Below are positions 17,456-42,353 of a DNA stretch of 64,000 bases, piece by piece. The DNA comes from Pirellulales bacterium. Lineage in GTDB: Bacteria > Planctomycetota > Planctomycetia > Pirellulales > PALSA-1355. The translations under genes were made by a program, and so were the position numbers. The notes beneath the pieces were generated by a model, which searched no databases, was not told the DNA's origin, and worked only from the letters and a program-made list of their open reading frames with translations. How positions within the stretch are numbered: position 1 is the stretch's first letter; the number at the start of each line of letters is the position of its first letter. The stretch covers positions 224,001 through 288,000 of the forward strand of contig CAVTBU010000006.1 of NCBI GenBank assembly GCA_963733035.1. The letters run 5' to 3'.

Positions 17456-17527
17456 GGGTCGGTAGCTGAGACGGTTTAGCGGTGGCCTGAAAAGCCGCAG
17501 ACGAGGATTCGAGCGCCTCCCGACCCA
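17456..17527 (+). tRNA. tRNA-Phe(GAA)
   Basis: Cloverleaf; anticodon arm GTGGC-CTGAAAA-GCCGC. Confidence 0.8.
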
Positions 17528-17563
17528 CTGCGCTCTGCGTGCGCGCTGACGGAGAACACTCAC

Positions 17564-17636
17564 GGCTCGTTCGTCTATCGGTTCAGGATACTGCCCTTTC
17601 AAGGCGGAGAGGTGGGTTCGATTCCCACACGAGCTA
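17564..17636 (+). tRNA. tRNA-Glu(TTC)
   Basis: CTGCC-CTTTCAA-GGCGG. Confidence 0.9.
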
Positions 17637-17654
17637 CTGAAGCAACAAAATCAT

Positions 17655-17726
17655 CGGGCTGAAGAGGGACGGCGCCTCGCGTGCCTTGGGAGCACGAGAC
17701 AGTCGGTTCGACTCCGACCTGCCCGA
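17655..17726 (+). tRNA. tRNA-Pro(TGG)
   Basis: CGTGC-CTTGGGA-GCACG. Confidence 0.8.
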
Positions 17727-17736
17727 CTTGCGTGAC

Positions 17737-17808
17737 GGTAGTTGAGGGCTGGTTGCCCAAACCCGGCTGATAACCAGGTGGCGCTGAGTTCGATTCTCAG
17801 AACTACCA
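17737..17808 (+). tRNA. tRNA-Ile(GAT)
   Basis: CCCGG-CTGATAA-CCAGG. Confidence 0.8.
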
Positions 17809-17887
17809 CTGAACGAGAGATCACAAGAAGGAGAAACGACGTTGGCAACTCGCATGCGACTCAAACGCATACGCCCACTCCACATTC

Positions 17888-17959
17888 GGGGTCGTGGCGT
17901 AACGGCAGCGCTTCCGCCTTTTAAGCGGGAAGGTAAGGGTTCGACTCCCTTCGGCCCCA
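17888..17959 (+). tRNA. tRNA-Lys(TTT)
   Basis: TCCGC-CTTTTAA-GCGGG. Confidence 0.9.
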
Positions 17960-17987
17960 CTGCGTTGGCTTCGGCCAGCGATCGCGG

Positions 17988-18060
17988 CGGCGCGTAGCTC
18001 AGTGGTGAGAGCAGGTCTCTTATAAGGACCAGGTCGAGGGTTCGATTCCCTCCGCGCCCA
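17988..18060 (+). tRNA. tRNA-Ile(TAT)
   Basis: GGTCT-CTTATAA-GGACC; C1:C72 mismatch. Confidence 0.85.
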
Positions 18061-18092
18061 CTGTGCGCGCAGAAACGAGGAACAACACGAAC

Positions 18093-18165
18093 GGGATCAA
18101 GGTGCTAGCGGCAGCATGCCTGGCTCTTAACCAGGTCGGTGAGGGTTCAAGTCCCTCTGATCCCA
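18093..18165 (+). tRNA. tRNA-Lys(CTT)
   Basis: CCTGG-CTCTTAA-CCAGG. Confidence 0.88.
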
Positions 18166-18171
18166 CTGGAA

Positions 18172-18262
18172 ACAGGCGAGAGGCACGAGGCCACAGGCTA
18201 GAGGGCGACCTTGAACCTCTACTGCTGACCTCTGGTCTCTCGCCTCAGGCCTCTGGCCTGTT
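18172..18262. repeat. Inverted heptamer tandem repeat forming a long imperfect hairpin
   Basis: AGGC every 7 nt, followed by complementary CCT every 7 nt. Confidence 0.65.
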
Positions 18263-18294
18263 TCGATCTTTGACAATTCGACCAGCGATTCGAC

Positions 18295-18361
18295 GCGCCC
18301 ATGATGTAGCGGTAGCCTGCTGCCTTGCCATGGCGTGCGGGTTCAACTCCCGCTGGGCGCT
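18295..18361 (+). tRNA. tRNA-Gly(GCC), short deletion after anticodon stem
   Basis: CTGCC-TTGCCAT-GGC; only 67 nt. Confidence 0.7.
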
Positions 18362-18368
18362 TCAATTT

Positions 18369-18442
18369 CAGGGTGTGGGATAGCCTGGTAGTCCGCCTGC
18401 GTCGGGAGCAGGAGAGCGTCGGTTCAATTCCGACCACCCTGA
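18369..18442 (+). tRNA. tRNA-Pro(CGG)
   Basis: CCTGC-GTCGGGA-GCAGG. Confidence 0.9.
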
Positions 18443-18480
18443 CTTTTTGAGAACGCTCTGACCGGTACAATGAGCGAATC

Positions 18481-18798
18481 ATGAATTGGCTTACGCCGTG
18501 GACTCCGATTGTCGAAAGCGATCGCGCGGAAATGCTGACTACCGAACTTCGTCGCGAAGTTGGAGTCGGCCACGTGCTGTTCGGCATTCCGGTAAAACCA
18601 ATTGCAATTCGCCAAGATTGCGACGACGTGCTCTTCGAGCTTCTTGATGGCTCGGGCCGATTCGCCGTCACTCACTTGACGTACGCTCAGCATCCCGAGC
18701 CAGATTCGCAATGGCCTGCAACTCGTCTCTGTGACGATTTGACTCAATTCGAGCGGAGCATCATGCACGTCGATCATTCGACCGCGACCGGCTTATAG
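18481..18798 (+). CDS. Hypothetical protein between tRNA genes
   Basis: 105-aa ORF filling the inter-tRNA gap; DCDDVLF, HLTY motifs. Confidence 0.7.
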   Translation: MNWLTPWTPIVESDRAEMLTTELRREVGVGHVLFGIPVKPIAIRQDCDDVLFELLDGSGRFAVTHLTYAQHPEPDSQWPATRLCDDLTQFERSIMHVDHSTATGL

Positions 18799-18815
18799 CG
18801 ATCGACTCCAGCTCG

Positions 18816-18889
18816 GAGGGTGTAGCGAAGCCTGGCATCGCGCAAGCTCGGGGAGCTTGAGATCGCAGGTTCAAATCCTGCCACCCTGA
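18816..18889 (+). tRNA. tRNA-Pro(GGG), C33
   Basis: CAAGC-TCGGGGA-GCTTG. Confidence 0.82.
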
Positions 18890-18908
18890 CTCGAACGTCG
18901 TCGATTGT

Positions 18909-19457
18909 TCAGCGCTTCCAAATCGTTACGTCGCTGCTGATCGCGATCAATAGCGTTCGGCCAGTGTACGAAAAGCCAAACCCGCGAAGCTCACGCTCAA
19001 TGGCTAGTTTCCAGAATCGTGAGGCAGGTGGATAGATGCTCTCGTACTTGCCAAGAAGCAAAAGACTTGTGTCCGGCCAATCGATGGACAAGGCTTCGAC
19101 GCCCCATCCGTCATCGGTCTGAGTCGGGAGGCCACCACCGACAAGTCCACAGACGCGAATCTCCCTTCCATCAAGTGGACCAAATCCGATGGCAGTCATG
19201 GCGTCTTTGCCGAACCACGATTCTTGATCTGATTCGTCACGATCTCGAGCGACTTTTTCGCCGGTGCGGCAATCGATGATTCCACGCCCTTGAGACGACA
19301 GTACCAGTAGCAGTTCAGAGTCGTCCGCAAAACCAATCTCAGTAAGTCCGCCAATTGCGACGGACGCGACGAACGACCATGGCTCTGGCGGAGCGGTGAC
19401 CGCAGCACGGCGAATTTTGTCTCGCACAGGTTCGAGGTGGTCCATAAGGTTTGCCAT
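18909..19457 (-). CDS. Hypothetical protein between tRNA genes (antisense)
   Basis: 182-aa ORF filling the gap; beta-propeller-like strands. Confidence 0.7.
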   Translation of the reverse strand: MANLMDHLEPVRDKIRRAAVTAPPEPWSFVASVAIGGLTEIGFADDSELLLVLSSQGRGIIDCRTGEKVARDRDESDQESWFGKDAMTAIGFGPLDGREIRVCGLVGGGLPTQTDDGWGVEALSIDWPDTSLLLLGKYESIYPPASRFWKLAIERELRGFGFSYTGRTLLIAISSDVTIWKR

Positions 19458-19500
19458 GGGTTCATAGGATGGCTCGCCAGTATACCGGATTGATCAATAT

Positions 19501-19575
19501 TGCGGTGGGGCCTGTGTTGGTACAGGCAGGCGCCTGTTAAGCGCCCCTTCGCAGGTTCGATTCCTGCCGCCGCAG
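19501..19575 (+). tRNA. tRNA-Asn(GTT)
   Basis: GGCGC-CTGTTAA-GCGCC; G73. Confidence 0.85.
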
Positions 19576-19587
19576 CTTTCTAGGGAC

Positions 19588-19671
19588 GGAAGGGCAAGCC
19601 AATGGGCGATGGCAGCTGTTTCGAAAACAGTCGAGCGATGAGCCTTGAGGGTTCGACTCCCTCTCCTTCCG
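19588..19671 (+). tRNA. tRNA-Ser(CGA)
   Basis: GCTGT-TTCGAAA-ACAGT; long variable arm; G73. Confidence 0.88.
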
Positions 19672-19675
19672 CTTC

Positions 19676-19747
19676 GTGCTCTTGGCCGATCGGCAGAGGC
19701 GTCAGCCTTCCAAGCTGAACAGGCGGGTTCGATTCCCGCAGAGCACT
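19676..19747 (+). tRNA. tRNA-Gly(TCC)
   Basis: TCAGC-CTTCCAA-GCTGA; U73. Confidence 0.88.
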
Positions 19748-19760
19748 TTCGATCAATCAT

Positions 19761-19831
19761 TCGGGGATCGGCTAATGGTCGGCCGCCTGGCTTTGAACCA
19801 GGCTATGGTAGTTCGAATCTACCTCCCCGAG
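19761..19831 (+). tRNA. tRNA-Gln(TTG)
   Basis: CCTGG-CTTTGAA-CCAGG. Confidence 0.9.
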
Positions 19832-19840
19832 CTTGGAAGA

Positions 19841-19909
19841 CTACCGCCCTGCGCTCGATTGCCGCCCGGCAATCGTGCTCGGTTGCTGGTTTGATTCCTT
19901 CTCCCCGAA
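19841..19909 (+). pseudogene. tRNA 3' remnant whose 5' part is replaced by a hairpin micro-element
   Basis: CTACCGCCCTGCGCTCG-hairpin-CGTGCTCGGTTGCT joined to GGTTTGATTCCTTCTCCCCGAA. Confidence 0.6.
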
Positions 19910-19925
19910 CTCGGTGACAAAACAT

Positions 19926-20000
19926 TCCGGGGTAGCTGCTGCTGGTAGTGGCGCCTGGCTCTGAACCAGGAGGTCGTTGGTTCGATTCCAACTCCCGGAG
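19926..20000 (+). tRNA. tRNA-Gln(CTG)
   Basis: CCTGG-CTCTGAA-CCAGG. Confidence 0.88.
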
Positions 20001-20020
20001 CTGTTTCGAACGACACGATC

Positions 20021-20106
20021 GGAAGTCATCCGGCCGGATGAGGAGCCTGTCTTGAAAACAGGTGGCGGCCTCGCGCCGCTTGTGGGTTCGAGTCCCACGG
20101 CTTCCG
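20021..20106 (+). tRNA. tRNA-Ser(TGA)
   Basis: CCTGT-CTTGAAA-ACAGG; long variable arm. Confidence 0.88.
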
Positions 20107-20134
20107 CTCAACAGGTCGATTCGTTCAGCAACAC

Positions 20135-20205
20135 AGTCCCGTGGTCCAACGGCAAGACTCCTGCGTCACATCCAGGAAACGATGGTTCAACTCCATCCGG
20201 GACTA
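20135..20205 (+). tRNA. tRNA-Val(CAC)
   Basis: CCTGC-GTCACAT-CCAGG (one mismatch). Confidence 0.8.
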
Positions 20206-20211
20206 CTCGAT

Positions 20212-20285
20212 GTCCAGGTACGCCAATTGGCAGAGCGGCACGGCTTAAACCCGCGCGGATGCCGGTTCGACTCCGGCCTTGGGCA
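20212..20285 (+). tRNA. tRNA-Leu(TAA), short variable loop
   Basis: CACGG-CTTAAAC-CCGCG. Confidence 0.8.
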
Positions 20286-20295
20286 CTGTCAACGC

Positions 20296-20368
20296 GGCTC
20301 GGTCGGCAACGGCAGACCACCTTGGCTTAGAACCAAGGATGCTGTGGGTTCGAATCCCACCTGAGCTA
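20296..20368 (+). tRNA. tRNA-Leu(TAG), short variable loop
   Basis: CTTGG-CTTAGAA-CCAAG. Confidence 0.85.
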
Positions 20369-20382
20369 TTTAGTAGAGACTC

Positions 20383-20457
20383 GTCCTCGTGGAGTAGTCT
20401 GGAGTGCTCGCCTGCCTGTCACGCAGGAGATCACGGGTTCAAATCCCGTCGGGGACG
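20383..20457 (+). tRNA. tRNA-Asp(GTC)
   Basis: CCTGC-CTGTCAC-GCAGG; G73. Confidence 0.92.
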
Positions 20458-20539
20458 CCTTTTGATTGTTGTACGCGAAATCGTCTGTGGCGCGGAGTGT
20501 TCCGCAACGCCTCGACGAACTGCAACGCAACGTAAATCT

Positions 20540-20613
20540 GGCACGGTACGCCAATCGGCTGAGCGGCGAAGCTCAAACCTTCGTGTCTGCGGGTTCGACT
20601 CCCGCCTGTGCCA
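20540..20613 (+). tRNA. tRNA-Leu(CAA), short variable loop
   Basis: CGAAG-CTCAAAC-CTTCG. Confidence 0.85.
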
Positions 20614-20619
20614 CTGTTC

Positions 20620-20706
20620 GGGTTGTGCTCCTCGTGGCGGCCTGTAAAGCCGTTGTCACAAAAGAAGCGAGGTGGGCGACGAATGGTTCGATTCCTTCAC
20701 AACCCA
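20620..20706 (+). tRNA. Atypical tRNA-Tyr(GTA) lacking a D hairpin
   Basis: Acceptor GGGTTGT/ACAACCC; GCGGC-CTGTAAA-GCCGT; T loop TTCGATT; only ~10 nt in D region. Confidence 0.7.
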
Positions 20707-20711
20707 ATTGA

Positions 20712-20784
20712 GGCCCGCTCGTCTATCGGTTGAGGACGCCAGCCTCTCAAGCTGGAAGGACGGGTTCGATTCCCGTGCGGGTCA
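20712..20784 (+). tRNA. tRNA-Glu(CTC)
   Basis: CCAGC-CTCTCAA-GCTGG. Confidence 0.9.
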
Positions 20785-20790
20785 CTGTAT

Positions 20791-20873
20791 GGCCAAGTGG
20801 TGTAACTGGTAAACACGCGACGCTCAGAACGTCGTGCCCTTGCGGCGTGGGAGTTCGAGTCTCCCCTTGGTCA
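20791..20873 (+). tRNA. tRNA-Leu(CAG)
   Basis: CGACG-CTCAGAA-CGTCG; long variable arm. Confidence 0.9.
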
Positions 20874-20890
20874 CTGAAATATTGAATTGA

Positions 20891-20959
20891 CGCAGGTGAG
20901 CCAGTGCTCAGCCGAGTTTCATAAGCTCAGCCCGTCGGGTGCGACACCCGAACCTGCAA
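20891..20959 (+). tRNA. Atypical initiator-like tRNA-Met(CAT)
   Basis: C1:A72 mismatch; loop TTCATAA; T loop TGCGACA. Confidence 0.7.
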
Positions 20960-20964
20960 CTTAC

Positions 20965-21040
20965 GGCCGGGTACGCAAACTGGCAAAGCGACGAGGTCGA
21001 GAGCCTCGTGATTTTGTGAGTTCGACTCTCACTCCGGTCA
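20965..21040 (+). tRNA. tRNA-Leu(GAG), C33, short variable loop
   Basis: CGAGG-TCGAGAG-CCTCG. Confidence 0.82.
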
Positions 21041-21069
21041 CTTGAATGAGATTGCGGCCAAAACTGATC

Positions 21070-21507
21070 CTACAGTGCGAGCACGCGGCACACCTCTCGA
21101 ATCCAGATCTCACCGATCCATTCCAGGTCGGCATACGGAGAGATGCGTGAAGCGGTCCAGCCGCTTTCGTCGAGTACTCGCATCATGCCGGGTGCCGCCA
21201 AGGCGTTCGTTGTGTGGATGATCACTGGGCATGTCGGCGGTTTCGTCGCGAGAAAGTCGGCCACATCGCGTCCGGTGCCGGGGTCACGCATGACACCGCC
21301 GATCAATCGGTTGGGTCCGAGATCGTGATCGAGGCAGATGAGAATCGGTTCGCCGCAGTGAACCTTCAGCCAGACGATCATATCTGGTGCATTGTCGAAC
21401 ACAATTGATTCATGGCCTGGGCAGCGACTTGCGAGGCACGGCAACATTGCGGCGATCCGTTCCGGCTCGTCGTCAAGAATTGCGACTACTTTTGATTCGC
21501 TTGCCAT
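21070..21507 (-). CDS. Cyclic-phosphate-processing receiver-like domain protein
   Basis: ILDD, LDHDLG, GTGRDV, IHTTN motifs. Confidence 0.7.
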   Translation of the reverse strand: MASESKVVAILDDEPERIAAMLPCLASRCPGHESIVFDNAPDMIVWLKVHCGEPILICLDHDLGPNRLIGGVMRDPGTGRDVADFLATKPPTCPVIIHTTNALAAPGMMRVLDESGWTASRISPYADLEWIGEIWIREVCRVLAL

Positions 21508-21533
21508 GTCAACAAGTCTAACAAATCACATTC

Positions 21534-21606
21534 GATCCCGTGGTCCAACGGCTACGACGCCTGGATGACACCCAGGAGGCAGATGGTTCAACTCCATCCG
21601 GGATCA
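21534..21606 (+). tRNA. tRNA-Val(GAC)
   Basis: CCTGG-ATGACAC-CCAGG. Confidence 0.88.
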
Positions 21607-21616
21607 TTTGCGAATC

Positions 21617-21688
21617 GGTCTGTAGGTGTGTTCGGCGGCACACCTCCTCGGTAAGGAGGAAGGCCGGGTTCGACTCCCGGACGGACCT
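21617..21688 (+). tRNA. tRNA-Thr(GGT), C33
   Basis: CCTCC-TCGGTAA-GGAGG. Confidence 0.82.
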
Positions 21689-21757
21689 TCAACCGAGCAC
21701 GCGACATAGGCGTGCCGCGAGCGCAGGGCGAAAGGAATCGAGATGGATAGAAGTGAG

Positions 21758-21790
21758 GGGCTGCTGGTCCAACGGCAAGACGCTTGGATT
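21758..21790 (+). pseudogene. 5' half of a tRNA-Ala-like gene; 3' half replaced by a hairpin
   Basis: GGGCTGCTGGTCCAACGGCAAGACGC nearly identical to 5' end of tRNA-Ala at 21838. Confidence 0.6.
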
Positions 21791-21837
21791 GAAGTCAGCG
21801 TCGATGGCAACGGCGGATCGACGCTCGTCAAATACAT

Positions 21838-21908
21838 GGGCTGCTCGTCCAACGGGAAGACGCCTGGCTTGCAACCAGGAAATCGGGGTTCGACTCCCCG
21901 GCGGTCCA
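21838..21908 (+). tRNA. tRNA-Ala(TGC)
   Basis: CCTGG-CTTGCAA-CCAGG; G3:U70. Confidence 0.9.
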
Positions 21909-21919
21909 CTGAATAAAAC

Positions 21920-21990
21920 GGGCTCATGGTCCAAAGGGAAGACATCAGGCTGGCAGTCTGAAGATCCGGGTTCAATTCCCGGTGAGTCCA
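21920..21990 (+). tRNA. tRNA-Ala(GGC)
   Basis: TCAGG-CTGGCAG-TCTGA; G3:U70. Confidence 0.88.
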
Positions 21991-22008
21991 CTGATACGGG
22001 AAACCTTT

Positions 22009-22311
22009 TTACATCGGAATACCGGCATCAATCGCAGCTTGTCGATTGTGGCCGGGTTCGAGAAGTGTCGTTCCTTGATAGACCTCGACGTTCGCGTCCA
22101 TGAGATCAGAAAGAGGCAGCTCAACATAGACCTGGGTATTACGGTCGGTCTCGACAACGTTGAACCACGGTTGTGCAACGAAACTGCGCACCTGGATTTC
22201 CAGTGACTCGCCGGGCAACAGCGTGAAGTCGTGAGGCCACGGCTCGACCCAAATGACGCGCAATTGCGCTTCGTCGTTGGTCACGCCGATCTTTGCGAAG
22301 AACTCACTCAT
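22009..22311 (-). CDS. Hypothetical protein between tRNA genes
   Basis: 100-aa ORF; WVEPW motif. Confidence 0.65.
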   Translation of the reverse strand: MSEFFAKIGVTNDEAQLRVIWVEPWPHDFTLLPGESLEIQVRSFVAQPWFNVVETDRNTQVYVELPLSDLMDANVEVYQGTTLLEPGHNRQAAIDAGIPM

Positions 22312-22443
22312 TACCCTAGCGTATTGCGGAAGCGTACGACAAACAAGTGATTCGGAAGGTAGATGCTATGGCAGCGGCGAGGGACTGCGTTAGGCTCCGA
22401 GTCACGAGGGATTGTTTTATCCGTTGTTTTGAGGAGCTCAATC

Positions 22444-23622
22444 ATGGCCACTCGACCGCAAGACTGCAGCACAACGAAGCCAGTACTGTTCCTGGGTCTC
22501 GAATTAGGGCAGCGAACCTGGAAGTTGGGGTTCACCGTGGGTTTGGGTCAGAAGCCGCGGCGACGTGAGATCGCTGCCGGTTGCATTCAGGCACTGAAAC
22601 GAGAGATCAATGAGAGTAAGCAACGTTTTGGTCTGCCTGCGGATGTGGAGGTGATTAGCTGTTACGAGGCAGGCCGTGATGGGTTTTGGCTGCATCGTTG
22701 GCTGGTGTCTGAGAACGTCACAAACTTGGTGGTTGACTCGTCTAGCATTCAAGTGCCGCGGCGGCAGCGACGGGCCAAGACCGATCGTCTGGATTTGGAA
22801 CAATTGTTGACCATGTTGGTGCGCTGGCATCAGGGCGAGTCGAAAGTCTGGAGCGTGGTGACGGTGCCGAGTGAAGCGGAAGAGGACGTTCGGCATTTGC
22901 ATCGCGAGTTGGAAACGCTGCGGGCGGAACAGACCAGCCACATCAATCGAATCAAGGGGCTGTTGATCGGTTGCGGCGTGGTGATTGATGTGAACCGCTG
23001 GCTACCGAAACGGCTCAAAGCAATACGGCTTTGGAATGGCTCGCCGTTGACCAGCGATTTGCGGCAACGGGTATTGCGGGAGTTCGAGCGGATGCAGGTG
23101 GTCAATCGACAGGTTCGCGAGCTGGAAAAGGAGCGTGCCGCCCGGATTCGCAGCAACGAAACTGACAAGAGCGTCGCCCAGGTGCGGACGTTGTTGGGCG
23201 TGAAGGGCATCGGCGTCAACAGCGCGTGGATGTACGTGCAGGAGGTGTTTGGCTGGCGAAAGATCAAGAATCGTCGTCAATTGGGTGCGCTCGTGGGGCT
23301 GACCGGCAGTCCGTATAGCAGCGGCAACTTGGAGCGCGATCAGGGAATTACAAAGGCTGGAAACCGCCGGATGCGAACAATGGCTGTCGAAATCGCCTGG
23401 GGATGGTTGGCATTCCAACCCGGCAGCGATCTGAGCCGTTGGTATCACGATCGATTCGCGGCCGGAAACAAGCGTCTTCGTCGCATTGGAATTGTGGCGC
23501 TGGCAAGAAAGCTGTTGGTGGAGTTGTGGAAATACCTGGAGACCGGCGTGCCGCCTTGCAACGCGGAGCTGACCGAGTGGGAGGACAAGATTCACTACAC
23601 CCCTTCCCTTACGCCGGCGTAG
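22444..23622 (+). CDS. IS110-family transposase/recombinase
   Basis: LGLELG, CYEAG, KTDRLD (DEDD fold); GVKGIG, PYSSG, ITKAGN; GAGGAG before ATG 22444. Confidence 0.95.
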   Translation: MATRPQDCSTTKPVLFLGLELGQRTWKLGFTVGLGQKPRRREIAAGCIQALKREINESKQRFGLPADVEVISCYEAGRDGFWLHRWLVSENVTNLVVDSSSIQVPRRQRRAKTDRLDLEQLLTMLVRWHQGESKVWSVVTVPSEAEEDVRHLHRELETLRAEQTSHINRIKGLLIGCGVVIDVNRWLPKRLKAIRLWNGSPLTSDLRQRVLREFERMQVVNRQVRELEKERAARIRSNETDKSVAQVRTLLGVKGIGVNSAWMYVQEVFGWRKIKNRRQLGALVGLTGSPYSSGNLERDQGITKAGNRRMRTMAVEIAWGWLAFQPGSDLSRWYHDRFAAGNKRLRRIGIVALARKLLVELWKYLETGVPPCNAELTEWEDKIHYTPSLTPA

Positions 23623-23669
23623 CGATTGGATCGGTGCGAGTATGGAGCGTCTGAACGACTGACGTCGAG

Positions 23670-23855
23670 ACTGGAAAGCGACCGAGTATCCGGCGGGTAC
23701 GAGTTAGGCTCACCGAAAGGTAGATGGGATCGCTTTCATTATGGCTTCCCGAGAGCGTCCAGGACGCATAGGGCATAGGGTGATCGGCGATGATGCCGGC
23801 ACGGATAGAAGCTAGTCGTTGGCCTCGGCCACAACGATCAGCGGAAGCCGCCAGT
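23670..23855 (+). ncRNA. Predicted bridge/seek RNA of the IS (also at about 40932-41117)
   Basis: Two stem-closed internal loops with segments matching target and donor junctions. Confidence 0.72.
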
Positions 23856-24218
23856 CATGACGTTGAACCGACAGAAGAAGTGTTTTGAGGAATGGCAGGA
23901 CAAATGAATGTGCATCCCAGCACGGCTCCAGCCGCGGCGTGCGGCCAGAGCCGTCACGGAATCATTCACCCGCCCTGACCTGGCTATCCCTTGTTGGGTT
24001 GCTCTTCAGCAGAGCTCAACTCCGTTTCACCAGGCAGGCGAAAGTATATCACGACTCAACGTTGGATGAGGAGCTTGACAGGTGCGCATCCATAGAAGCC
24101 GGATACGGTTGGCCGGGCCGCTCTGCTAAGGCGGTTCCCGCTCGTCGGGATGAGGGTTCGAATCGGGCACCGCGGCAAAGCCGTGGTCTACCTTCCGCTG
24201 GTGAAAAGGCTCCTCCAA

Positions 24219-24581
24219 TCACTTCGCCTGTTCCACGTCGATCGCGGCCCGCAGCTCCTCAACATTCGCGAATTGTTGAAGTGGAAGATCGAACGAGTAG
24301 TCGAGATCAATGATTCGAAGGGGGATGCCGAGATGCCTTTGAACGATCAGCGCGGCACTTAGGGCGGCGTCTGTCATCCCCGATATCGAGATCGCGTCGC
24401 GTTTCCGGCTGAGGTCGACCATCGTGAAGTCGTCGCCCTCAGAATAGTCCGCTTCAATTGGGATTCCGATGGACGTATTATATCGAATCTCACCGAATCC
24501 CCTGACCGACTTGAAAATGTCTTGCAACGCCTCGACGGTAAATAGCCGTTTGTCGTCGCTGAACAGCAGAAGACTTTGCAT
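24219..24581 (-). CDS. Hypothetical protein, candidate immunity protein
   Basis: Directly downstream of nuclease-toxin ORF; GGAG RBS. Confidence 0.6.
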   Translation of the reverse strand: MQSLLLFSDDKRLFTVEALQDIFKSVRGFGEIRYNTSIGIPIEADYSEGDDFTMVDLSRKRDAISISGMTDAALSAALIVQRHLGIPLRIIDLDYSFDLPLQQFANVEELRAAIDVEQAK

Positions 24582-24596
24582 AGCAATTACGTACTC

Positions 24597-25867
24597 CTAG
24601 GGCTCGAGTCGCACCTTGCCGGGCACGGATAGTTCCTTGAGCAGGGCTTCAAAAGCTGACTTCGCCTCGGGCGAGTTGGTGATGATTTCGATTGATTTAA
24701 AAGGCGTTTCGCCACTCTTGATAATTGTGCGAACTCTCGTCAAATCGTCACGCACTTTGTCCAGAATCACGGCCCGGATGTCCTCTCGGATAGATGAGCC
24801 GGGCACATAAGGACTCTTGCCGGCCTTCGCTACGTGCTTCGCTTCAAGAATTATCGTATCCCGGTATCCATCGATTGCAAAAGACTGGCCGCCGCCTGAT
24901 ATCGTGTAGTTGTAGGGGCCGGTCTGCTTGATTTCATATTGACTCGCTGCCGATTTCGTGGGTGTAGGCTTGCGAGGAAGCTTCGCGACGAAGTCATCAA
25001 GAGTGCCTCCCACTTTTCCAGGAACTTTGCGAAGCGCCCTGCCGAGCACAGCCTTCCCGAGTCGCAGGATTGCCGGTGCGGCCACGACGGCGGATGCAAT
25101 TTCAAACTCAATGCCGGTTGACTGCAAACCACTCGGTGTGCCGCCCCTGGCTACGGCATGCCCGACTTCCTCGATACCCTTGCCACCGACGATCGTCTCT
25201 GCCGGGGTGAACGCCGAATGCTGTTTCGCTGGGCGTGATAGCTCTTAATGCGTTTCGGCAATTCCTTGATTTGGCGACGGGTGTGATCCAATGCATTCTT
25301 TGTCTGCCACCAAGCGTGTGCCAGGTCCAGCATGTGTGAGTCGGAACCGTCGGACTCGTCGCTTCCGCCGCTACCGGGCCCCTTGCTGCGGGGTGAGCGA
25401 CTCTTGCCGGTGTTGATTCCGCCCCCACCGCCCCCCTTATTGATCCACTGCCCGCCGATCGGCGTTCCCTTGGGCGCCCGGGGATGATCGGCCTCGTTCC
25501 ATTCGACAACAAGTGAGTCTGATTCAGTGAATCGCTCGATCGCATGCCACGTCCTGCTGTCCCGTGCCTCGATCTGTTGAATCGCACGCAGTTTGTCTTC
25601 CGCCTCGGCCGAGATCTGAGCTGCCCATTCCAGAAGCTCACGATCGCGACGAGCGTTGGCTTCGGCGGATTGCAGCTCGCGCAGCTCCTTTGCCTGTCGA
25701 TACGAGAATCGTGCTAGCCGCCCCAACTCCTCGCGTTGAGCTTTCGCCTGTGCCTCGGGAGGCATCATTCGTGGAATCGGCCTACCGAGAATCGCTTGTG
25801 CAAATAGCCAACCTTCGCTGGGCTGCGAAACTCCGGCGACATCCCGTGTCTTTTTGTAACGGTCCAT
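24597..25867 (-). CDS. Polymorphic-toxin-like protein with C-terminal restriction-endonuclease-fold domain (frameshifted near 25130-25230)
   Basis: LFAQAILG, RDRELLEW shared with 14049; HPRAPKG..GGQW; IDGY...LEAK PD-(D/E)XK motif. Confidence 0.6.
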
Positions 25868-25891
25868 GACGCTCCTCTTCATGGGTGCGAG

Positions 25892-26034
25892 AAAAAGAGC
25901 CCGCACCCGGTGCGCGCTTCGCAAGCGCGCACCGATTACGGGCTCTTTGGATACTCGTTGTCAGGGGCCTACTGGCACGAGGACGTGCAGTCGAGCTCTT
26001 CGGATACCCCGGTCACTCATGGTGACCTTGCCCA
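25892..26034 (-). promoter_or_regulatory. Structured leader/terminator, second copy
   Basis: Homologous to 13876-14017 with covarying stems. Confidence 0.65.
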
Positions 26035-26179
26035 GCGATCAGCTCGCCGATTGATTCGGAACCTAGCACAAAGGGCGGCCTAGTTTCTAGTCGAAGATTT
26101 AATGGAGTGATTGGTCTGAGCAAATACGTCGCGCGAACCGTGCGGCGTGGATCTGTTTCCTTTTCTAATGTCTCAGCTC

Positions 26180-26269
26180 GCCTCGATGGTGAAACGGACG
26201 ATCACTCCTTGCTTCTAACAAGGCCCGGTATTTCTGGGAGACGCGGGGGTTCGAATCCTGGTCGGGGCA
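26180..26269 (+). pseudogene. tRNA-Arg(TCT) with hairpin insertion at variable loop/T stem
   Basis: CCTTG-CTTCTAA-CAAGG; 17 nt longer than intact copy at 41457. Confidence 0.75.
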
Positions 26270-26368
26270 TTTTGAAGAAGAGTGGTTGGTGGTCAGTGGC
26301 TAGTGGTCAGTGAAGCAAGGGGCGGCGAACACAAAGCGTGCTCGTCTGTCCTACCTGTGGCCTGTGGT

Positions 26369-26436
26369 CTACCGCCCTGCGCTCGGCAGATGCCCATCTG
26401 CCGTGCTCGGTTGCTGGTTCAATTCCTCGGCGAGGC
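26369..26436 (+). pseudogene. 3' remnant of tRNA-Arg(TCG) fused to hairpin micro-element
   Basis: GGTTCAATTCCTCGGCGAGGCA matches 3' end of tRNA at 42884-42956. Confidence 0.7.
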
Positions 26437-26616
26437 ACTGAGAAGGCGGCGAGTTGAATGATCATGTTGCGAGCGATCCTAACAGCGTTGAGACGATTCC
26501 TGTTTGGCCAGCCTGTGGCCAGCAGGGTGACCGCGAAGAAACCGTCGGCAGAAGCCGTCGCGTGTGCGGTCGTTCATTCGACGACGTCGGCGGATCGCAA
26601 CGAAGGGAGGCCTACC

Positions 26617-27108
26617 ATGAACGCAGCCTATGACAAACTATGCGAACACCTGACCAACCAGAACGTCGGCTTTTGGTCGCGCAGCGAGGACTTGTCGATC
26701 TGCACCGACTTTCGGGGCGAGGTCGGTACGTACCGGATCTTCGCTCGGATTGATGCTGATGACAGCTTGTTCCAGGTCTTCGGTCATTCGCCGGTTCGCG
26801 TTCCGCCAGGCTCGCGGCCGGCGATCGCCGAGGCCGTGGCGCGGATCAACTGCGGTCTGAAGGTCGGCAAGTTCGAGATGGATTGTGACGAGGGCGAGCT
26901 GCGGTTCCAGGCGGCCCAGATCCTGCCCGACGACGATCTCGACGAGCAGACGATTCGGCGACTGATTGGTACGACCATGTCGATGTTGAACATTTACCTT
27001 CCGGCCATCTTGTCGGTCATCTACGGCAACGAACTGCCGAAGGATGCCGTCAGACACGCAGAGCCCGGGCGGTATGTGTCCGACGAAAACGAGCGCGGTG
27101 AGGCCTGA
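26617..27108 (+). CDS. YbjN-domain protein, copy 1
   Basis: AEAVARINCGLKVGKFEMD..GELRF; GGAGG RBS. Confidence 0.8.
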   Translation: MNAAYDKLCEHLTNQNVGFWSRSEDLSICTDFRGEVGTYRIFARIDADDSLFQVFGHSPVRVPPGSRPAIAEAVARINCGLKVGKFEMDCDEGELRFQAAQILPDDDLDEQTIRRLIGTTMSMLNIYLPAILSVIYGNELPKDAVRHAEPGRYVSDENERGEA

Positions 27109-27121
27109 TCACCGCGCATTT

Positions 27122-27194
27122 GTCCTCGGAGTGTGCCGGATTCGCACGCGACCCTGCGAAGGTCGAGGACCAGGTTCAACTCCTGGCGAGGACA
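27122..27194 (+). tRNA. tRNA-Arg(GCG)
   Basis: CGACC-CTGCGAA-GGTCG. Confidence 0.85.
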
Positions 27195-27241
27195 TTTTGG
27201 AATGTCGCGGGATTGTGTACCGTAGTAGCGGGAGACACTCA

Positions 27242-27706
27242 ATGAACTTGCAGCATGAAAATCACGGTCCCTTGCCGACGCGCGAGGACATTAATGTCTT
27301 CGACTCGCTTGACGAACGTTGCGCTTGCGATCACTTTTTGGGCAAGAACATGGACGAGGCTCAGGCACTGTTCAGTGATAATTTCTTGCGTTACCAGGAG
27401 GATTTGGTGTTTATGGGGCCTCGTGCCTTCCGCTTCTACGTTCATGCTGCCATGCAATACCTCATGAGCCCCGATGCCTCAGGTGACGGCGATGCCGCCA
27501 ACAGTTTCGCAGGGCTACTTGAATTCAGACTTGAACATGAGAGGAACGAAGTGCAGCCAGTGGCAGGTGAGCTAGCGCGGATATGCAATTACCTCTTCGA
27601 AAATATTAGTCGATTCGAATGTGAGCCATCCATCTATGGCGATGTTGGCGCTCGTTATGCAGCTCTGAATAGCGCGCTCGAACAACTCGCCACGACACAG
27701 CCCTAA
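27242..27706 (+). CDS. Hypothetical protein between tRNA genes
   Basis: 154-aa ORF, GGGAG RBS; EDLVFMGPRAFRFY. Confidence 0.7.
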   Translation: MNLQHENHGPLPTREDINVFDSLDERCACDHFLGKNMDEAQALFSDNFLRYQEDLVFMGPRAFRFYVHAAMQYLMSPDASGDGDAANSFAGLLEFRLEHERNEVQPVAGELARICNYLFENISRFECEPSIYGDVGARYAALNSALEQLATTQP

Positions 27707-27750
27707 CCCAACATGGTCCGGCTCGTGCAGCAGCATCAATTCTCAAATCT

Positions 27751-27822
27751 GACGCTGAAGCCAGACGGCGTGGCAACTGCCTGCAAAGCAGTTCACAGCG
27801 GGTTCGACTCCCGCCGGCGTCT
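27751..27822 (+). tRNA. tRNA-Cys(GCA)
   Basis: ACTGC-CTGCAAA-GCAGT; U73. Confidence 0.88.
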
Positions 27823-38189: not shown

Positions 38190-38280
38190 GGGTCGGTAGC
38201 GGAGACGCGGGCACCATGCGCAGCATGGTCGGCGGTGGCCTGAAAAGCCGCAGACGAGGATTCGAGCGCCTCCCGACCCA
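38190..38280 (+). pseudogene. tRNA-Phe(GAA) with hairpin insertion in D arm
   Basis: Matches 17456-17527 except GGGCACCATGCGCAGCATGGTC insert. Confidence 0.75.
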
Positions 38281-38311
38281 CTGCGCCGGGCACCGACCGC
38301 AGGTTGGTCGG

Positions 38312-38368
38312 CGCGACACTCAGACTGTCGTGCCGTAAGGCGTGGGAGTTCGAGTCTCCCCTTGGTCA
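38312..38368 (+). pseudogene. 3' two-thirds of tRNA-Leu(CAG)
   Basis: CGACA-CTCAGAC-TGTCG; 3' end identical to 20791 copy; 5' part replaced by hairpin element. Confidence 0.75.
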
Positions 38369-38402
38369 CTGAACTGTTGGCGGGCAAGAACCCGTTGAAC
38401 GA

Positions 38403-38471
38403 CGCAGGCGAGCCAGTGCTCAGCTGGGCCTCATAAGCCCGGACCGTCGGGTGCGACACCCGAACCTGCTA
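38403..38471 (+). tRNA. Atypical initiator-like tRNA-Met(CAT)
   Basis: Homolog of 20891; C1:U72; loop CTCATAA. Confidence 0.7.
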
Positions 38472-38556
38472 CTAGCAACTGAGGCCGCCGAGCGATTAGC
38501 GAGGATGAAGACCGAAGGCGGTAGTCATCAGACAAGCCGCCGCGCAGCAGACATTT

Positions 38557-38630
38557 GGCCGGGTACGCAAACTGGCAAAGCGACGAGGTCGAGAGCCTCG
38601 TGTTTGTGAGTTCGACTCTCACTCCGGTCA
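38557..38630 (+). tRNA. tRNA-Leu(GAG), C33
   Basis: CGAGG-TCGAGAG-CCTCG. Confidence 0.82.
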
Positions 38631-38635
38631 CTGAC

Positions 38636-38708
38636 GATCCCGTGGTCCAACGGCTAAGACGCCTGGATGACACCCAGGAAACAGATGGTTCAACTCCATC
38701 CGGGATCA
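38636..38708 (+). tRNA. tRNA-Val(GAC)
   Basis: CCTGG-ATGACAC-CCAGG. Confidence 0.88.
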
Positions 38709-38733
38709 CTTTGCAACCGAGTTGCGCAGCGAA

Positions 38734-39115
38734 TCAGTCGGACATCGTTGACGAAAGTCGAGCGGCGAGCTTTCTGCCACACCAGGCTGCAACAGCCATC
38801 GGAATCGCTGCAGCAGCAAATTGAATCGGCATCACGATTGACAACGGTCCAAGGCCCGACGGATCCGGCTCAAAGAGCGTGAGCAGGTACACGACGATAA
38901 ACGCAGCCCCACAAACCATGCCAAGCAGGACTCCCTGAGAGGTGAGGAGTCCTACTAGATAATGCGATCGAACTTGCCGTTACGACAAGGTTCCATTCGC
39001 CATCGTCCGGTGAAATACGCCAGAATCCACCGACAAGGCAAATAGCCGTCACGGCAACGAACAGAGTTCGCAAGTTGAACTGTGACCGTGACTGTAGCTC
39101 GTTGTCTCCACCCAT
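38734..39115 (-). CDS. Small membrane protein between tRNAs (frameshifted)
   Basis: QFNLRTLFVAVTAICL start; hydrophobic continuation in a second frame. Confidence 0.5.
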
Positions 39116-39182
39116 GATCGCCATTATACGGTACGACTTCTGGTTCAGGGCACCACGACAGAACACCGTTTACGTCGCAATT

Positions 39183-39253
39183 GGGCTGCTCGTCCAACGG
39201 GAAGACGCCTGGCTTGCAACCAGGAAATCGGGGTTCGACTCCCCGGCGGTCCA
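39183..39253 (+). tRNA. tRNA-Ala(TGC)
   Basis: Identical to 21838-21908. Confidence 0.9.
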
Positions 39254-39264
39254 CTGAACAACAC

Positions 39265-39352
39265 GGGCTCATGGTCCAAAGGGAAGACATCAGGCTGGCA
39301 GTCTGACCAGTGTCTATTGGAAATGCGGCGGGTTCAATTCCAGGTGGGTCCA
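39265..39352 (+). pseudogene. tRNA-Ala(GGC) with hairpin insertion at variable loop
   Basis: 17 nt longer than 21920 copy; CCAGTGTCTATTGGAAATGCGG insert. Confidence 0.75.
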
Positions 39353-39375
39353 CTCATCAATCATGGAGACGTGAA

Positions 39376-39612
39376 ATGGCCGATTCTGTGTTGATCCGGT
39401 TCGTCGGCGAAAGAGGGAAAGCACATCACTTTTTGAAGCTTGGCCCGGTAGAGGTTTGGAACCCGCCGGAGCGTGAGTTTCAGGGTGGCGACGAAATCAG
39501 GGTGCAGATTCGCCCGAATGCCTTAAACCCAGATTGCGTGGACCTGACATTTGACGATGGACAATACGCGATTGAAGTTCCGAAGGATTTCTTCGTGATC
39601 GTTGAGGAATGA
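39376..39612 (+). CDS. Hypothetical protein between tRNA genes
   Basis: 78 aa, GGAG RBS, fills the gap. Confidence 0.6.
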   Translation: MADSVLIRFVGERGKAHHFLKLGPVEVWNPPEREFQGGDEIRVQIRPNALNPDCVDLTFDDGQYAIEVPKDFFVIVEE

Positions 39613-39624
39613 AATGGAAGGTAG

Positions 39625-41360
39625 ATGCTATGGCAGCGGCGAGGGACTGCGTTAGGCTCCGAGTCACGAGGGATTGTTTTATCCGTTGTTTTGAGGAGCT
39701 CAATCATGGCCACTCGACCGCAAGACTGCAGCACAACGAAGCCAGTACTGTTCCTGGGTCTCGAATTAGGGCAGCGAACCTGGAAGTTGGGGTTCACCGT
39801 GGGTTTGGGTCAGAAGCCGCGGCGACGTGAGATCGCTGCCGGTTGCATTCAGGCACTGAAACGAGAGATCAATGAGAGTAAGCAACGTTTTGGTCTGCCT
39901 GCGGATGTGGAGGTGATTAGCTGTTACGAGGCAGGCCGTGATGGGTTTTGGCTGCATCGTTGGCTGGTGTCTGAGAACGTCACAAACTTGGTGGTTGACT
40001 CGTCTAGCATTCAAGTGCCGCGGCGGCAGCGACGGGCCAAGACCGATCGTCTGGATTTGGAACAATTGTTGACCATGTTGGTGCGCTGGCATCAGGGCGA
40101 GTCGAAAGTCTGGAGCGTGGTGACGGTGCCGAGTGAAGCGGAAGAGGACGTTCGGCATTTGCATCGCGAGTTGGAAACGCTGCGGGCGGAACAGACCAGC
40201 CACATCAATCGAATCAAGAGGCTGTTGATCGGTTGCGGCGTGGTGATTGATGTGAACCGCTGGCTACCGAAACGGCTCAAAGCAATACGGCTTTGGAATG
40301 GCTCGCCGTTGACCAGCGATTTGCGGCAACGGGTATTGCGGGAGTTCGAGCGGATGCAGGTGGTCAATCGACAGGTTCGCGAGCTGGAAAAGGAGCGTGC
40401 CGCCCGGATTCGCAGCAACGAAACTGACAAGAGCGTCGCCCAGGTGCGGACGTTGTTGGGCGTGAAGGGCATCGGCGTCAACAGCGCGTGGATGTACGTG
40501 CAGGAGGTGTTTGGCTGGCGAAAGATCAAGAATCGTCGTCAATTGGGTGCGCTCGTGGGGCTGACCGGCAGTCCGTATAGCAGCGGCAACTTGGAGCGCG
40601 ATCAGGGAATTACAAAGGCTGGAAACCGCCGGATGCGAACAATGGCTGTCGAAATCGCCTGGGGATGGTTGGCATTCCAACCCGGCAGCGATCTGAGCCG
40701 TTGGTATCACGATCGATTCGCGGCCGGAAACAAGCGTCTTCGTCGCATTGGAATTGTGGCGCTGGCAAGAAAGCTGTTGGTGGAGTTGTGGAAATACCTG
40801 GAGACCGGCGTGCCGCCTTGCAACGCGGAGCTGACCGAGTGGGAGGACAAGATTCACTACACCCCTTCCCTTACGCCGGCGTAGCGATTGGATCGGTGCG
40901 AGTATGGAGCGTCTGAACGACTGACGTCGAGACTGGAAAGCGACCGAGTATCCGGCGGGTACGAGTTAGGCTCACCGAAAGGTAGATGGGATCGCTTTCA
41001 TTATGGCTTCCCGAGAGCGTCCAGGACGCATAGGGCATAGGGTGATCGGCGATGATGCCGGCACGGATAGAAGCTAGTCGTTGGCCTCGGCCACAACGAT
41101 CAGCGGAAGCCGCCAGTCATGACGTTGAACCGACAGAAGAAGTGTTTTGAGGAATGGCAGGACAAATGAATGTGCATCCCAGCACGGCTCCAGCCGCGGC
41201 GTGCGGCCAGAGCCGTCACGGAATCATTCACCCGCCCTGACCTGGCTATCCCTTGTTGGGTTGCTCTTCAGCAGAGCTCAACTCCGTTTCACCAGGCAGG
41301 CGAAAGTATATCACGACTCAACGTTGGATGAGGAGCTTGACAGGTGCGCATCCATAGAAG
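39625..41360 (+). mobile_element. IS110/IS1111-family insertion sequence, copy 2
   Basis: Same length and junctions as copy 1. Confidence 0.92.
39706..40884 (+). CDS. IS110-family transposase/recombinase
   Basis: One aa difference from copy 1 (IKGLL/IKRLL). Confidence 0.95.
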   Translation: MATRPQDCSTTKPVLFLGLELGQRTWKLGFTVGLGQKPRRREIAAGCIQALKREINESKQRFGLPADVEVISCYEAGRDGFWLHRWLVSENVTNLVVDSSSIQVPRRQRRAKTDRLDLEQLLTMLVRWHQGESKVWSVVTVPSEAEEDVRHLHRELETLRAEQTSHINRIKRLLIGCGVVIDVNRWLPKRLKAIRLWNGSPLTSDLRQRVLREFERMQVVNRQVRELEKERAARIRSNETDKSVAQVRTLLGVKGIGVNSAWMYVQEVFGWRKIKNRRQLGALVGLTGSPYSSGNLERDQGITKAGNRRMRTMAVEIAWGWLAFQPGSDLSRWYHDRFAAGNKRLRRIGIVALARKLLVELWKYLETGVPPCNAELTEWEDKIHYTPSLTPA

Positions 41361-41456
41361 CCGGATACGGTTGGCCGGGCCGCTCTGCTAAGGCGGTTCC
41401 CGCTCGTCGGGATGAGGGTTCGAATCCCTTGCCTTCCGCTCGTGAACGATACGTGA

Positions 41457-41529
41457 GCCTCGATGGTGAAACGGACGATCACTCCTTGCTTCTAACAAGG
41501 CATTCCGGGTTCGAATCCTGGTCGGGGCA
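41457..41529 (+). tRNA. tRNA-Arg(TCT)
   Basis: CCTTG-CTTCTAA-CAAGG. Confidence 0.9.
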
Positions 41530-41555
41530 TTTTTGAGGAATACGACAATATATAT

Positions 41556-41630
41556 GGCGTCCGTGGTGTAGCGGTTTCTGCACGTCTGGCTGTGAACCAG
41601 AAGGTGGCGGTTCAACTCCGCTCGGACACC
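41556..41630 (+). tRNA. tRNA-His(GTG)
   Basis: TCTGG-CTGTGAA-CCAGA; G-1:C73. Confidence 0.88.
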
Positions 41631-41647
41631 CTGAAAGGAAGTGAAGC

Positions 41648-42244
41648 ATGGTCGCAAAGGTACTTGAACATCCAACGCTGGTGCTCAACCGCAACTGGCA
41701 GCCGGTGAACGTGGCCACGGTGGCCCGGGCGCTGGTGCTGTTGTGGAACGACTCGGCTCGCGTGGTGGACCCGGCGGACTACCGGCTCTACACCTGGGCC
41801 GATTGGTCGGAGCTGCGCCCGGACGAAGGCGAGCGGTTCATCCAGGCCGTGCGGCTGCGGCTGCGCGTGCCCGAGGTGATCGTGCTGGCCGAGTACGACC
41901 GGCTGCCGACCGCCGCCGTGAGCTTCAGCCGCCGCAACGTATTCAAGCGGGACCATTGGGCCTGCCAGTACTGCGGCTGCCAGCCGGGCGGAGAGGAGTT
42001 GACGATCGATCACGTGATTCCGCGGTCGCACGGTGGCACCTCGACGTGGGAGAACTGCGTGCTCGCGTGCATCGGCTGCAACAAGCGAAAGGCCGACCGC
42101 ACGCCGCACCAGGCCGGTATGCGGCTCCACAAGGTGCCGGTCCGGCCGACGTGGAAGCCGATCTACGCCCGCGACAGCGTGCGGATCGAAAGCTGGTCGA
42201 AGTTTATCAGCGAGACGTACTGGAATGTTCCGCTGGAGAAGTAG
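41648..42244 (+). CDS. HNH endonuclease (McrA-like)
   Basis: RDHWACQYCG, TIDHVIPRSHGG, CIGCNKRK. Confidence 0.93.
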   Translation: MVAKVLEHPTLVLNRNWQPVNVATVARALVLLWNDSARVVDPADYRLYTWADWSELRPDEGERFIQAVRLRLRVPEVIVLAEYDRLPTAAVSFSRRNVFKRDHWACQYCGCQPGGEELTIDHVIPRSHGGTSTWENCVLACIGCNKRKADRTPHQAGMRLHKVPVRPTWKPIYARDSVRIESWSKFISETYWNVPLEK

Positions 42245-42280
42245 CCAGTTGCCCGCAGGGCTTGTTCCTGCGGGCCTTAC

Positions 42281-42350
42281 ACGAGTGTGCTCCTGGGAGA
42301 GCAGTCAGCCTCCAAAACTGACGGACGGGGTTCGACTCCTCGCGCTCGTG
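42281..42350 (+). tRNA. tRNA-Trp(CCA)
   Basis: TCAGC-CTCCAAA-ACTGA; G73; small D arm. Confidence 0.78.
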
Positions 42351-42353
42351 CTT

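Follow-up and report, generated by a model that had tools for sequence, protein, structure and literature searches.

What directs a mobile element to the same two bases of two different transfer RNA (tRNA) genes is the question raised by a 64,000-nucleotide (nt) stretch of a Pirellulales bacterium genome (GenBank assembly GCA_963733035.1, contig CAVTBU010000006.1, positions 224,001–288,000 of the forward strand; the whole stretch is hereafter called the window, and coordinates without a contig name are counted from its first letter). The window holds two copies of an insertion sequence, each inside a tRNA-Ser(GCT) gene, and the element very probably belongs to the IS110 family, with an IS1111-type layout and a 3' end predicted to encode a two-domain guide RNA (bridge RNA/seekRNA) matching the tRNA-Ser target. 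The matches of this end to the target flanks and to the ends of the element are far beyond chance. An earlier reading of the DNA (the original prediction) had proposed a natural RNA-guided recombinase specialised on an array tRNA; the guidance is supported by sequence comparison, while the specialisation is drawn from two insertions and one diverged relative. The anatomy, the protein family, the covariation of the guides, the two insertions and the empty sites are all read from sequence and comparison.

Copies, boundaries and empty target sites

Both copies lie on the forward strand, copy 1 at 22363–24098 (1736 bp, including the right-hand core AG at 24097–24098) and copy 2, with one difference, at 39625–41360. 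The shared blocks extend somewhat further (22354–24164 and 39616–41426) and are 99.945% identical over 1811 aligned nt, the sole mismatch, at 22957, falling within the coding region. In both copies the left junction reads GGAAGGT-AG followed by ATGCTATGG (22354–22371; 39616–39633) and the right junction CCATAGA-AG followed by CCGGATAC (24090–24106; 41352–41368), with the dinucleotide core AG present at both junctions of both copies and a single AG in the empty sites. The coordinates agree with the original prediction that both copies split the tRNA target at this AG, which corresponds to tRNA positions 8–9. The left end (22363–22371, forward strand) consists of a terminal ATG followed by the subterminal inverted repeat CTATGG (22366–22371), and the right end (24090–24098, forward strand) of the repeat CCATAG, an A and the core AG. 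The perfect inverted repeat CTATGG/CCATAG is 6 bp and matches at 9 of 12 positions when extended, to be compared with the 7–17 bp quoted for subterminal inverted repeats of the IS1111 group; in relatives the repeats are longer, e.g. CTATGtGGGAG versus CTATGGGGAG. The non-coding parts are of unequal length, 476 nt 3' of the stop codon versus 81 nt 5' of the start, as in the IS1111 group.

For comparison 80 relatives were fetched from genomes (44–58% protein identity) and 80 from metagenomes (up to 68%), and their ends were located via the conserved termini AGAT[G/A]CTATG, which is the left end in relatives, and TTGAC...CATAGAAG. A search for further genomic copies and their flanks, as the original prediction had suggested, gave two copies only, both at the same tRNA-Ser site, with no third copy in the whole 6.6-Mb assembly. 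Near-full-length element DNA was not found among 60 related genomes, and a plasmid collection gave only distant matches to the transposase gene (66–74% identity over 7–17% of the query).

The 5' fragment of the copy 1 tRNA-Ser(GCT) (22354–22362, forward strand) comprises the acceptor strand GGAAGGT together with A8 and G9, the left core AG being 22361–22362. The 3' part (24099–24198, forward strand) is the same as that of copy 2 until 24164, after which about 25 foreign nt (24165–24189) replace the 3' T-stem strand, followed by the acceptor strand ACCTTCC. The 3' part at copy 2 (41361–41439, forward strand) gives an 88-nt tRNA when joined to 39616–39624. When the element and one AG were removed in silico at copy 2, ARAGORN called a tRNA-Ser(gct) of 88 nt, with the acceptor stem GGAAGGT/GCCTTCC, then A8 and G9, then the D-stem CCGG/CCGG, whereas the same precise excision at copy 1 gave no ARAGORN tRNA call. 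The proposal that precise excision would restore the tRNA is therefore borne out for copy 2 but not for copy 1, where the damage to the tRNA is independent of the element. Position 8 of a tRNA is usually U; in the array tRNA-Ser(GCT) it is A, in this genome as well as in the uninterrupted copies that related genomes carry (L092–L103).

When the 3' part of the tRNA was compared with the 60 related genomes, 12 full-length matches at ≥85% identity were obtained in 11 other genomes. The element is absent from all 11 loci examined, and in 10 of them ARAGORN called an uninterrupted tRNA-Ser(gct), within the array order Ala-Ala-Ser-Arg-His as here; at one locus, L097, a tRNA-Ser call was absent. The exact 17-mer GGAAGGTAGCCGGATAC, with a single AG and inside an intact tRNA-Ser(GCT), is found at seven of the 11 loci and variants of it at three. 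Loose ends in two sequencing runs likewise show uninterrupted sites. The uninterrupted sites in related genomes thus define both element ends and the core, giving an element of 1734 bp with one AG added. The other tRNA-Ser(GCT) of the genome, on contig C5, is intact and has no target match within 3 mismatches; loss of the array copies should therefore be tolerable.

Predicted guides for the target in the 3' non-coding end

The putative target-binding domain of the predicted bridge/seekRNA (23674–23737, forward strand) is a stem, GAAAGCGA(CC)/(GG)aTCGCTTTC, around an internal loop with a small hairpin. Its 5' guide (23685–23694, forward strand) comprises the 10 nt after the stem and could pair with the core G and the right flank. 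The sequence GTATCCGGC (23686–23694) is the reverse complement of the core G plus CCGGATAC, confirming that this side of the loop is exactly complementary to the right target flank. In the window this 9-mer occurs only in the two loops and at the two right junctions (4 matches versus 0.37 expected; none of 100 shuffles reached 4 matches). The 3' guide (23717–23726, forward strand) consists of AAGGT, equal to the left flank, AG, equal to the core, and ATG, equal to nt 1–3 of the element and handshake-like in position. The identity of AAGGTAG (23717–23723) with left flank plus core, pointed out in the original prediction, therefore extends to 10 nt (AAGGTAGATG) by including nt 1–3 of the element, and this 10-mer has 4 matches in the window versus 0.04 expected. 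The top-strand match (23686–23694) precedes the bottom-strand match (23717–23723), which is the order found in the IS1111 group.

Among the relatives the 5' guide was defined by structure alone, as the 10 nt after the stem, and a register shift of 0–2 nt was allowed for own and cross-locus comparisons alike. At least 8 of the 10 positions form Watson-Crick pairs with the own right flank in 39 of 45 unique guide/flank pairs, compared with 3 of 1652 in the cross-locus control. The 45 loci fall into 13 guide clusters, 11 of which include a locus with ≥8 pairs. In the window element 9 of 10 positions of the 5' guide pair, and left flank plus core match at 7 of 7. An independent metagenome set gave ≥8 pairs in 10 of 25 loci and ≥6 pairs in 22 of 25, with cross-locus values of 0/544 and 63/544, respectively. 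In the left guide, position -1 is identical with the left flank in 88% of 64 loci and position -2 in 66% (cross-locus 35% and 23%); the identity runs over 0–5 nt across relatives and over 5 nt in the window element. The left guide is always followed by AG-ATG, that is the core and the first bases of the element, and AGATG is near-invariant in relatives.

Predicted donor loop and handshake positions

The predicted donor-binding domain (23743–23849, forward strand) is closed by GGCTTCC (23743–23749) and GGAAGCC (23843–23849) around a multi-branch loop with three hairpins. The original prediction had placed two element-derived motifs here, and both were recovered. The left-end complement GCAT (23773–23776, forward strand), contained in GGCAT (23772–23776), is complementary to left-end nt 1–4 (ATGC), and such a complement is present at a fixed place of the donor loop in 47 of 52 loci, 33 with ATAC/GTAT and 14 with ATGC/GCAT. 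The right-end repeat (23805–23812, forward strand) reads ATAGA-AG, equal to the right end and the core, with ATAGAAG itself at 23805–23811, and the C after it is the same as nt 1 of the right flank, a handshake-like feature. In relatives the right end recurs in the second domain as GGATAGAAG. The relative L003 (3677–3879 plus right end) has the core GG instead of AG in the right end, the donor loop and the target loop together.

When the base after the donor-loop core was compared with the first right-flank base it was identical in 29 and wobble-compatible in 28 of 58 loci (57/58 together), the cross-locus value being 46%. In IS621, once the strands have been exchanged, so-called handshake guides pair with the other DNA partner. 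The base following the donor-loop core and the constant ATG following the target-loop core mirror these handshake guides.

Fold and covariation of the predicted RNA

In minimum-free-energy folds the first-domain stem is formed by GAAAGCGA at 23674–23681 pairing with TCGCTTTC at 23730–23737, and the GGCTTCC/GGAAGCC stem of the second domain appears in the minimum-free-energy fold at its predicted coordinates. A 189-nt part (23668–23856) folds with z = -2.54 (3 of 200 shuffles reach an equally good fold), whereas the whole 476-nt 3' end folds no better than shuffles (z = -1.46). Folding of the non-coding end, suggested as a check in the original prediction, hence recovers both stems and a part that stands out, but not a 3' end that does so over its full length.

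The scaffold 3' of the gene is conserved and common to relatives. RNAalifold on 65 distinct sequences gave 22 consensus pairs, 17 of which show compensatory changes, among them pairs of the first-domain closing stem and of the inner hairpin. The closing stem of the second domain occurs as GGCTTC/GAAGCC, GGCCTGC/GCAGGCC, CAGGGTG/CACCCTG and CGGAGTG/CACTCCG. When scored as a stem of ≥6 bp it is formed within the own sequence in 55 of 65 cases and in 1617 of 3496 cross combinations, a control that separates poorly, and the case for this stem accordingly lies in its compensatory versions only. A search with Rfam (E up to 10) over 22200–24300 gave one chance-level match (E 6.1) and no bridge RNA family.

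The recombinase

The transposase/recombinase gene (22444–23622, forward strand) encodes 392 amino acids (aa); if translation began at an in-frame ATG at 22363, the product would have 419 aa. The 392-aa protein matches the NCBIfam model NF033542, "IS110 family RNA-guided transposase", with 171.1 bits (cut-off 140) over model positions 2–342 of 343, and PF02371 with 45.9 bits (cut-off 21.3). Alignments with the solved transposases of IS621 and ISCro4 cover the C-terminal domain (E values of 2.6e-4 and 1.2e-4, respectively). In an alignment of the element with 10 relatives E75, D114, D117 and S293 are invariant across the 11 sequences, while position 20 is E in nine and D in two. The catalytic residues given for IS621 are D11, E60, D102, D105 and S241, and by analogy E20, E75, D114, D117 and S293 are probably equivalent to this acidic set and the serine nucleophile; with the DEDD domain model PF01548 under its cut-off and the N-terminal half unaligned, the equivalence can only be inferred.

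For IS1111-group transposases a length of 330–350 aa and the motif GL-P----S(t)G are quoted, and the protein departs from both, being 392 aa long and having G in place of P. The motif GL-P----SG reads GLTGSPYSSG here and is kept exactly in seven of the 11 aligned relatives.

Comparison with known systems

Among the IS1111-type elements with a seekRNA are ISEc11, ISPa11, ISKpn4 and ISPst6, and Siddiquee et al. (2024, PMC11187229) showed that in IS1111-type seekRNAs the match to the top strand is placed 5' of that to the bottom strand. The present element resembles them in having a non-coding region 3' of the transposase gene, subterminal inverted repeats with a short terminal extension, a top-strand match 5' of a bottom-strand match with the two overlapping at the insertion point, and a target of its own for each element or clade. 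It differs in the longer transposase (392 aa versus the quoted range), in the perfect inverted repeat of only 6 bp and in having the 5' part of a tRNA gene as its target. Durrant et al. (2024, PMC11208160) predicted bridge RNAs in the right end of 93% of IS1111 elements and noted that in these elements the donor-binding bases are often found in a multi-loop.

For the IS621 bridge RNA (Durrant et al. 2024, PMC11208160; Hiraizumi et al. 2024, PMC11208158; Hiraizumi et al. 2026, PMC13626964) the descriptions give a 5' loop side of 8–9 nt that reads the bottom strand, a 3' side of 4–7 nt that reads the top strand, and a CT core. As in IS621, the RNA appears to have one domain for the target and another for the joined ends, each reading one DNA half per strand including the dinucleotide core, with a long guide (9–10 nt) on the 5' loop side, a short one on the 3' side, and extra handshake nucleotides that match the other DNA partner. 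Unlike in IS621, the RNA gene follows the recombinase gene and lies in the right end, the two loop sides have swapped strand roles relative to the strand of the recombinase gene, the donor nucleotides lie in a multi-branch loop instead of a simple internal loop, and the protein has 392 aa versus 326–328 aa, with the C-terminal domain alone aligning by sequence. Viewed on the complementary strand, the RNA-centred geometry would be that of IS621: the 5' guide is long, the 3' guide is short and extended by the handshake, and the core reads CT.

Like the tyrosine-integrase islands and phages found in tRNA genes, the element has a conserved tRNA gene as its site-specific point of insertion. Those elements insert in the 3' part of the tRNA, rebuild the tRNA from their own sequence and have an attachment (att) site that is read by protein. 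The present element, in contrast, splits the tRNA at positions 8–9, does not rebuild it and has a site that is apparently read by RNA. In the literature collection that was searched, no report linking IS1111 or IS110 to tRNA targets came up.

Insertion history and alternative explanations

The architecture foreseen in the original prediction, that of a bridge/seekRNA element, thus agrees with the NF033542 match, with the covariation of guides with flanks and ends, with the compensatory stems and with the IS1111-type strand order. Several observations weigh against it. On the side of the protein, PF01548 scores 22.9 bits, under its cut-off of 29, the N-terminal half gave no alignment to the IS621 structure, and the first acidic residue is E instead of D. 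On the side of the guides, six of the 45 loci (L027, L041, L044, L046, L053 and L056) pair at fewer than 8 of 10 positions, the replication of target-guide pairing in the metagenome set appears weaker, the left target guide spans just 5 nt plus core in this element and often 1–2 nt in relatives, and the 5' guide of the donor loop has only 4–5 nt and does not pair to the core. On the side of mobility, the genome contains only 2 copies in 6.6 Mb, a non-tRNA site on contig C7 (549299–549315) is unoccupied although it matches 15 of 17 target positions, among them all of the left guide plus core and 8 of the 9 positions of the right guide, and no circle junction or excision joint for this locus was found in contigs of the sequencing runs. 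One joint, 22965 to 23791 (run X5, side 21), came from a metagenome source of low likeness and was not used.

It is hardly credible that the protein alone recognises the site and that the non-coding matches are due to chance or to end-like protein-binding sites. The donor-loop sequences are near-constant in the family and could, taken alone, be protein-binding sites that copy the ends, but the variable loop strand follows the target at 39 of 45 loci, the control giving 3 of 1652, the guide motifs are found nowhere else in the window, the stems around the loops covary as RNA pairs, and published experiments show a need for the RNA in both IS1111-type and IS110-type elements. That copy 2 arose by duplication or gene conversion of an element-bearing segment, instead of by a second targeted insertion, is very unlikely. 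The tRNA arrays are indeed paralogous with a gene order common to both, and the shared block runs exactly from the first tRNA base to the T loop; yet the array segments beside the block are only 74–98% identical between the arrays, compared with 99.945% for the block, and the element is therefore younger than the array duplication. In addition, the homology left of the element, at just 9 nt, would not suffice for homologous exchange, the DNA between tRNA-Ala(GGC) and tRNA-Ser is unalignable between the arrays, and a diverged relative occupies the same site in another metagenome. This last observation is a soil-metagenome contig of 1812 nt from another study, which covers exactly 22354–24164 with 152 differences and by its sequence represents a diverged relative, ~92% identical and bounded by the same tRNA parts. 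The two copies are accordingly read from the sequence as two separate insertions into paralogous tRNAs.

There is some chance, though a small one, that guides and target are as described but that the element is no longer mobile, the two copies being relics of a past burst. The low copy number and the near-perfect free site on contig C7, mentioned above, would fit such an element, as would the change of P to G in a motif that most of the aligned relatives keep exactly. Against this stand a 392-aa frame that is open in both copies, the retention of all conserved acidic residues and of S293, guides that match the target at 9/10 and 7/7 positions, and a single difference per 1736 nt between the copies, which points to recent copying.

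Proposed mechanism and meaning

For an element guided by a bridge/seekRNA the proposed layout comprises a short left end, the recombinase gene and a long 3' non-coding end that would encode the two-domain guide RNA. While the first domain reads the target, GCAT (23773–23776) and ATAGAAG (23805–23811) of the second domain would recognise, likewise on two strands, the joined ends of the element itself, and the recombinase would exchange strands at AG, so that the inserted element has A8/G9 on one side and the tRNA D-stem on the other. By analogy with the work on IS621, ISEc11, ISPa11 and ISKpn4, the RNA is presumably made and bound by the protein, the donor would be a circle with a junction promoter, and the serine/DEDD chemistry is expected to apply.

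What is found here is a known architecture with a new target, the layout being that published for the bridge/seekRNA of IS1111-type elements, and the known mechanism is left unchanged by this element. Its value lies in offering a clean case from nature, with the target, donor and handshake positions of a bridge/seekRNA directly legible in the sequence, in an unusual target, the 5' part of a tRNA gene within a redundant tRNA array, and in about 100 relatives with different targets, which form a natural reprogramming series for the IS1111-type scaffold, less studied than IS621.

A further and rather doubtful proposal joins these features into a distinct IS1111-like subfamily together with a lineage specialised on a tRNA of the long arrays, which are found again at 85–100% identity in several families of the order. 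The marks of the subfamily would be a transposase of ~390 aa, E as first acidic residue, a top-strand guide of 9–10 nt, a bottom-strand guide of 2–5 nt and built-in handshake nucleotides, and the redundancy of the array tRNA site would make the insertion harmless. If this were true, the array tRNA site may also carry the element between genomes, and reversible insertion could switch an array tRNA off and on.

The tRNA arrays

There are 45 tRNA genes in the window, 44 of them in two paralogous arrays (17456–27822 and 38190–44483) that flank a kdpABC-kdpDE operon (28.1–37.5 kb). Small genes are found among the array tRNAs, namely cREC_REC, Tox-REase-2, two YbjN-like genes, an HNH endonuclease and a HEPN AbiV gene, and BrxL-like and DUF3987 genes follow. 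The array tRNA-Ser is 85–100% identical across genomes from several families of the order. Several array tRNAs contain extra or replaced segments (24165–24189; 26180–26269; 39265–39353; 38190–38281). The tRNA-Arg(TCT) at 26180 and the tRNA-Ala(GGC) at 39265 are 90 and 89 nt long, compared with 73 and 72 nt for their paralogues, the excess being due to long inserts in the variable region; a tRNA-Ala(GGC) of 89 nt is also present in the related genome L098.

A candidate junction promoter and an additional module in the right end

A candidate -35 box, TTGACA (24075–24080, forward strand), would face GATGCT at a distance of 17 nt only across a circle junction. The spacing given in the original prediction was reproduced when counted on the sequence with one AG at the junction. 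A promoter scan of the linear form gave 0 sites, and TTGAC is located at the same distance from the right end in all 10 of 10 short contigs of relatives.

The right non-coding end also contains an extra module of ~110 nt (23944–24054, forward strand; 41206–41316 in copy 2), which has no Rfam match and no other copy in its own genome. It is 75–84% identical to sequences in five related genomes (loci L083, L084, L090, L091, L085, L086 and L087), which at L083 and L084 are located directly upstream of ISL3-type transposase genes and at L085 and L087, judged by eye, adjoin the start of an IstB-like (IS21 helper) gene. The module could be a passenger, a captured end or a small repeat, and separate metagenome contigs cover the 23944–24054 module only.

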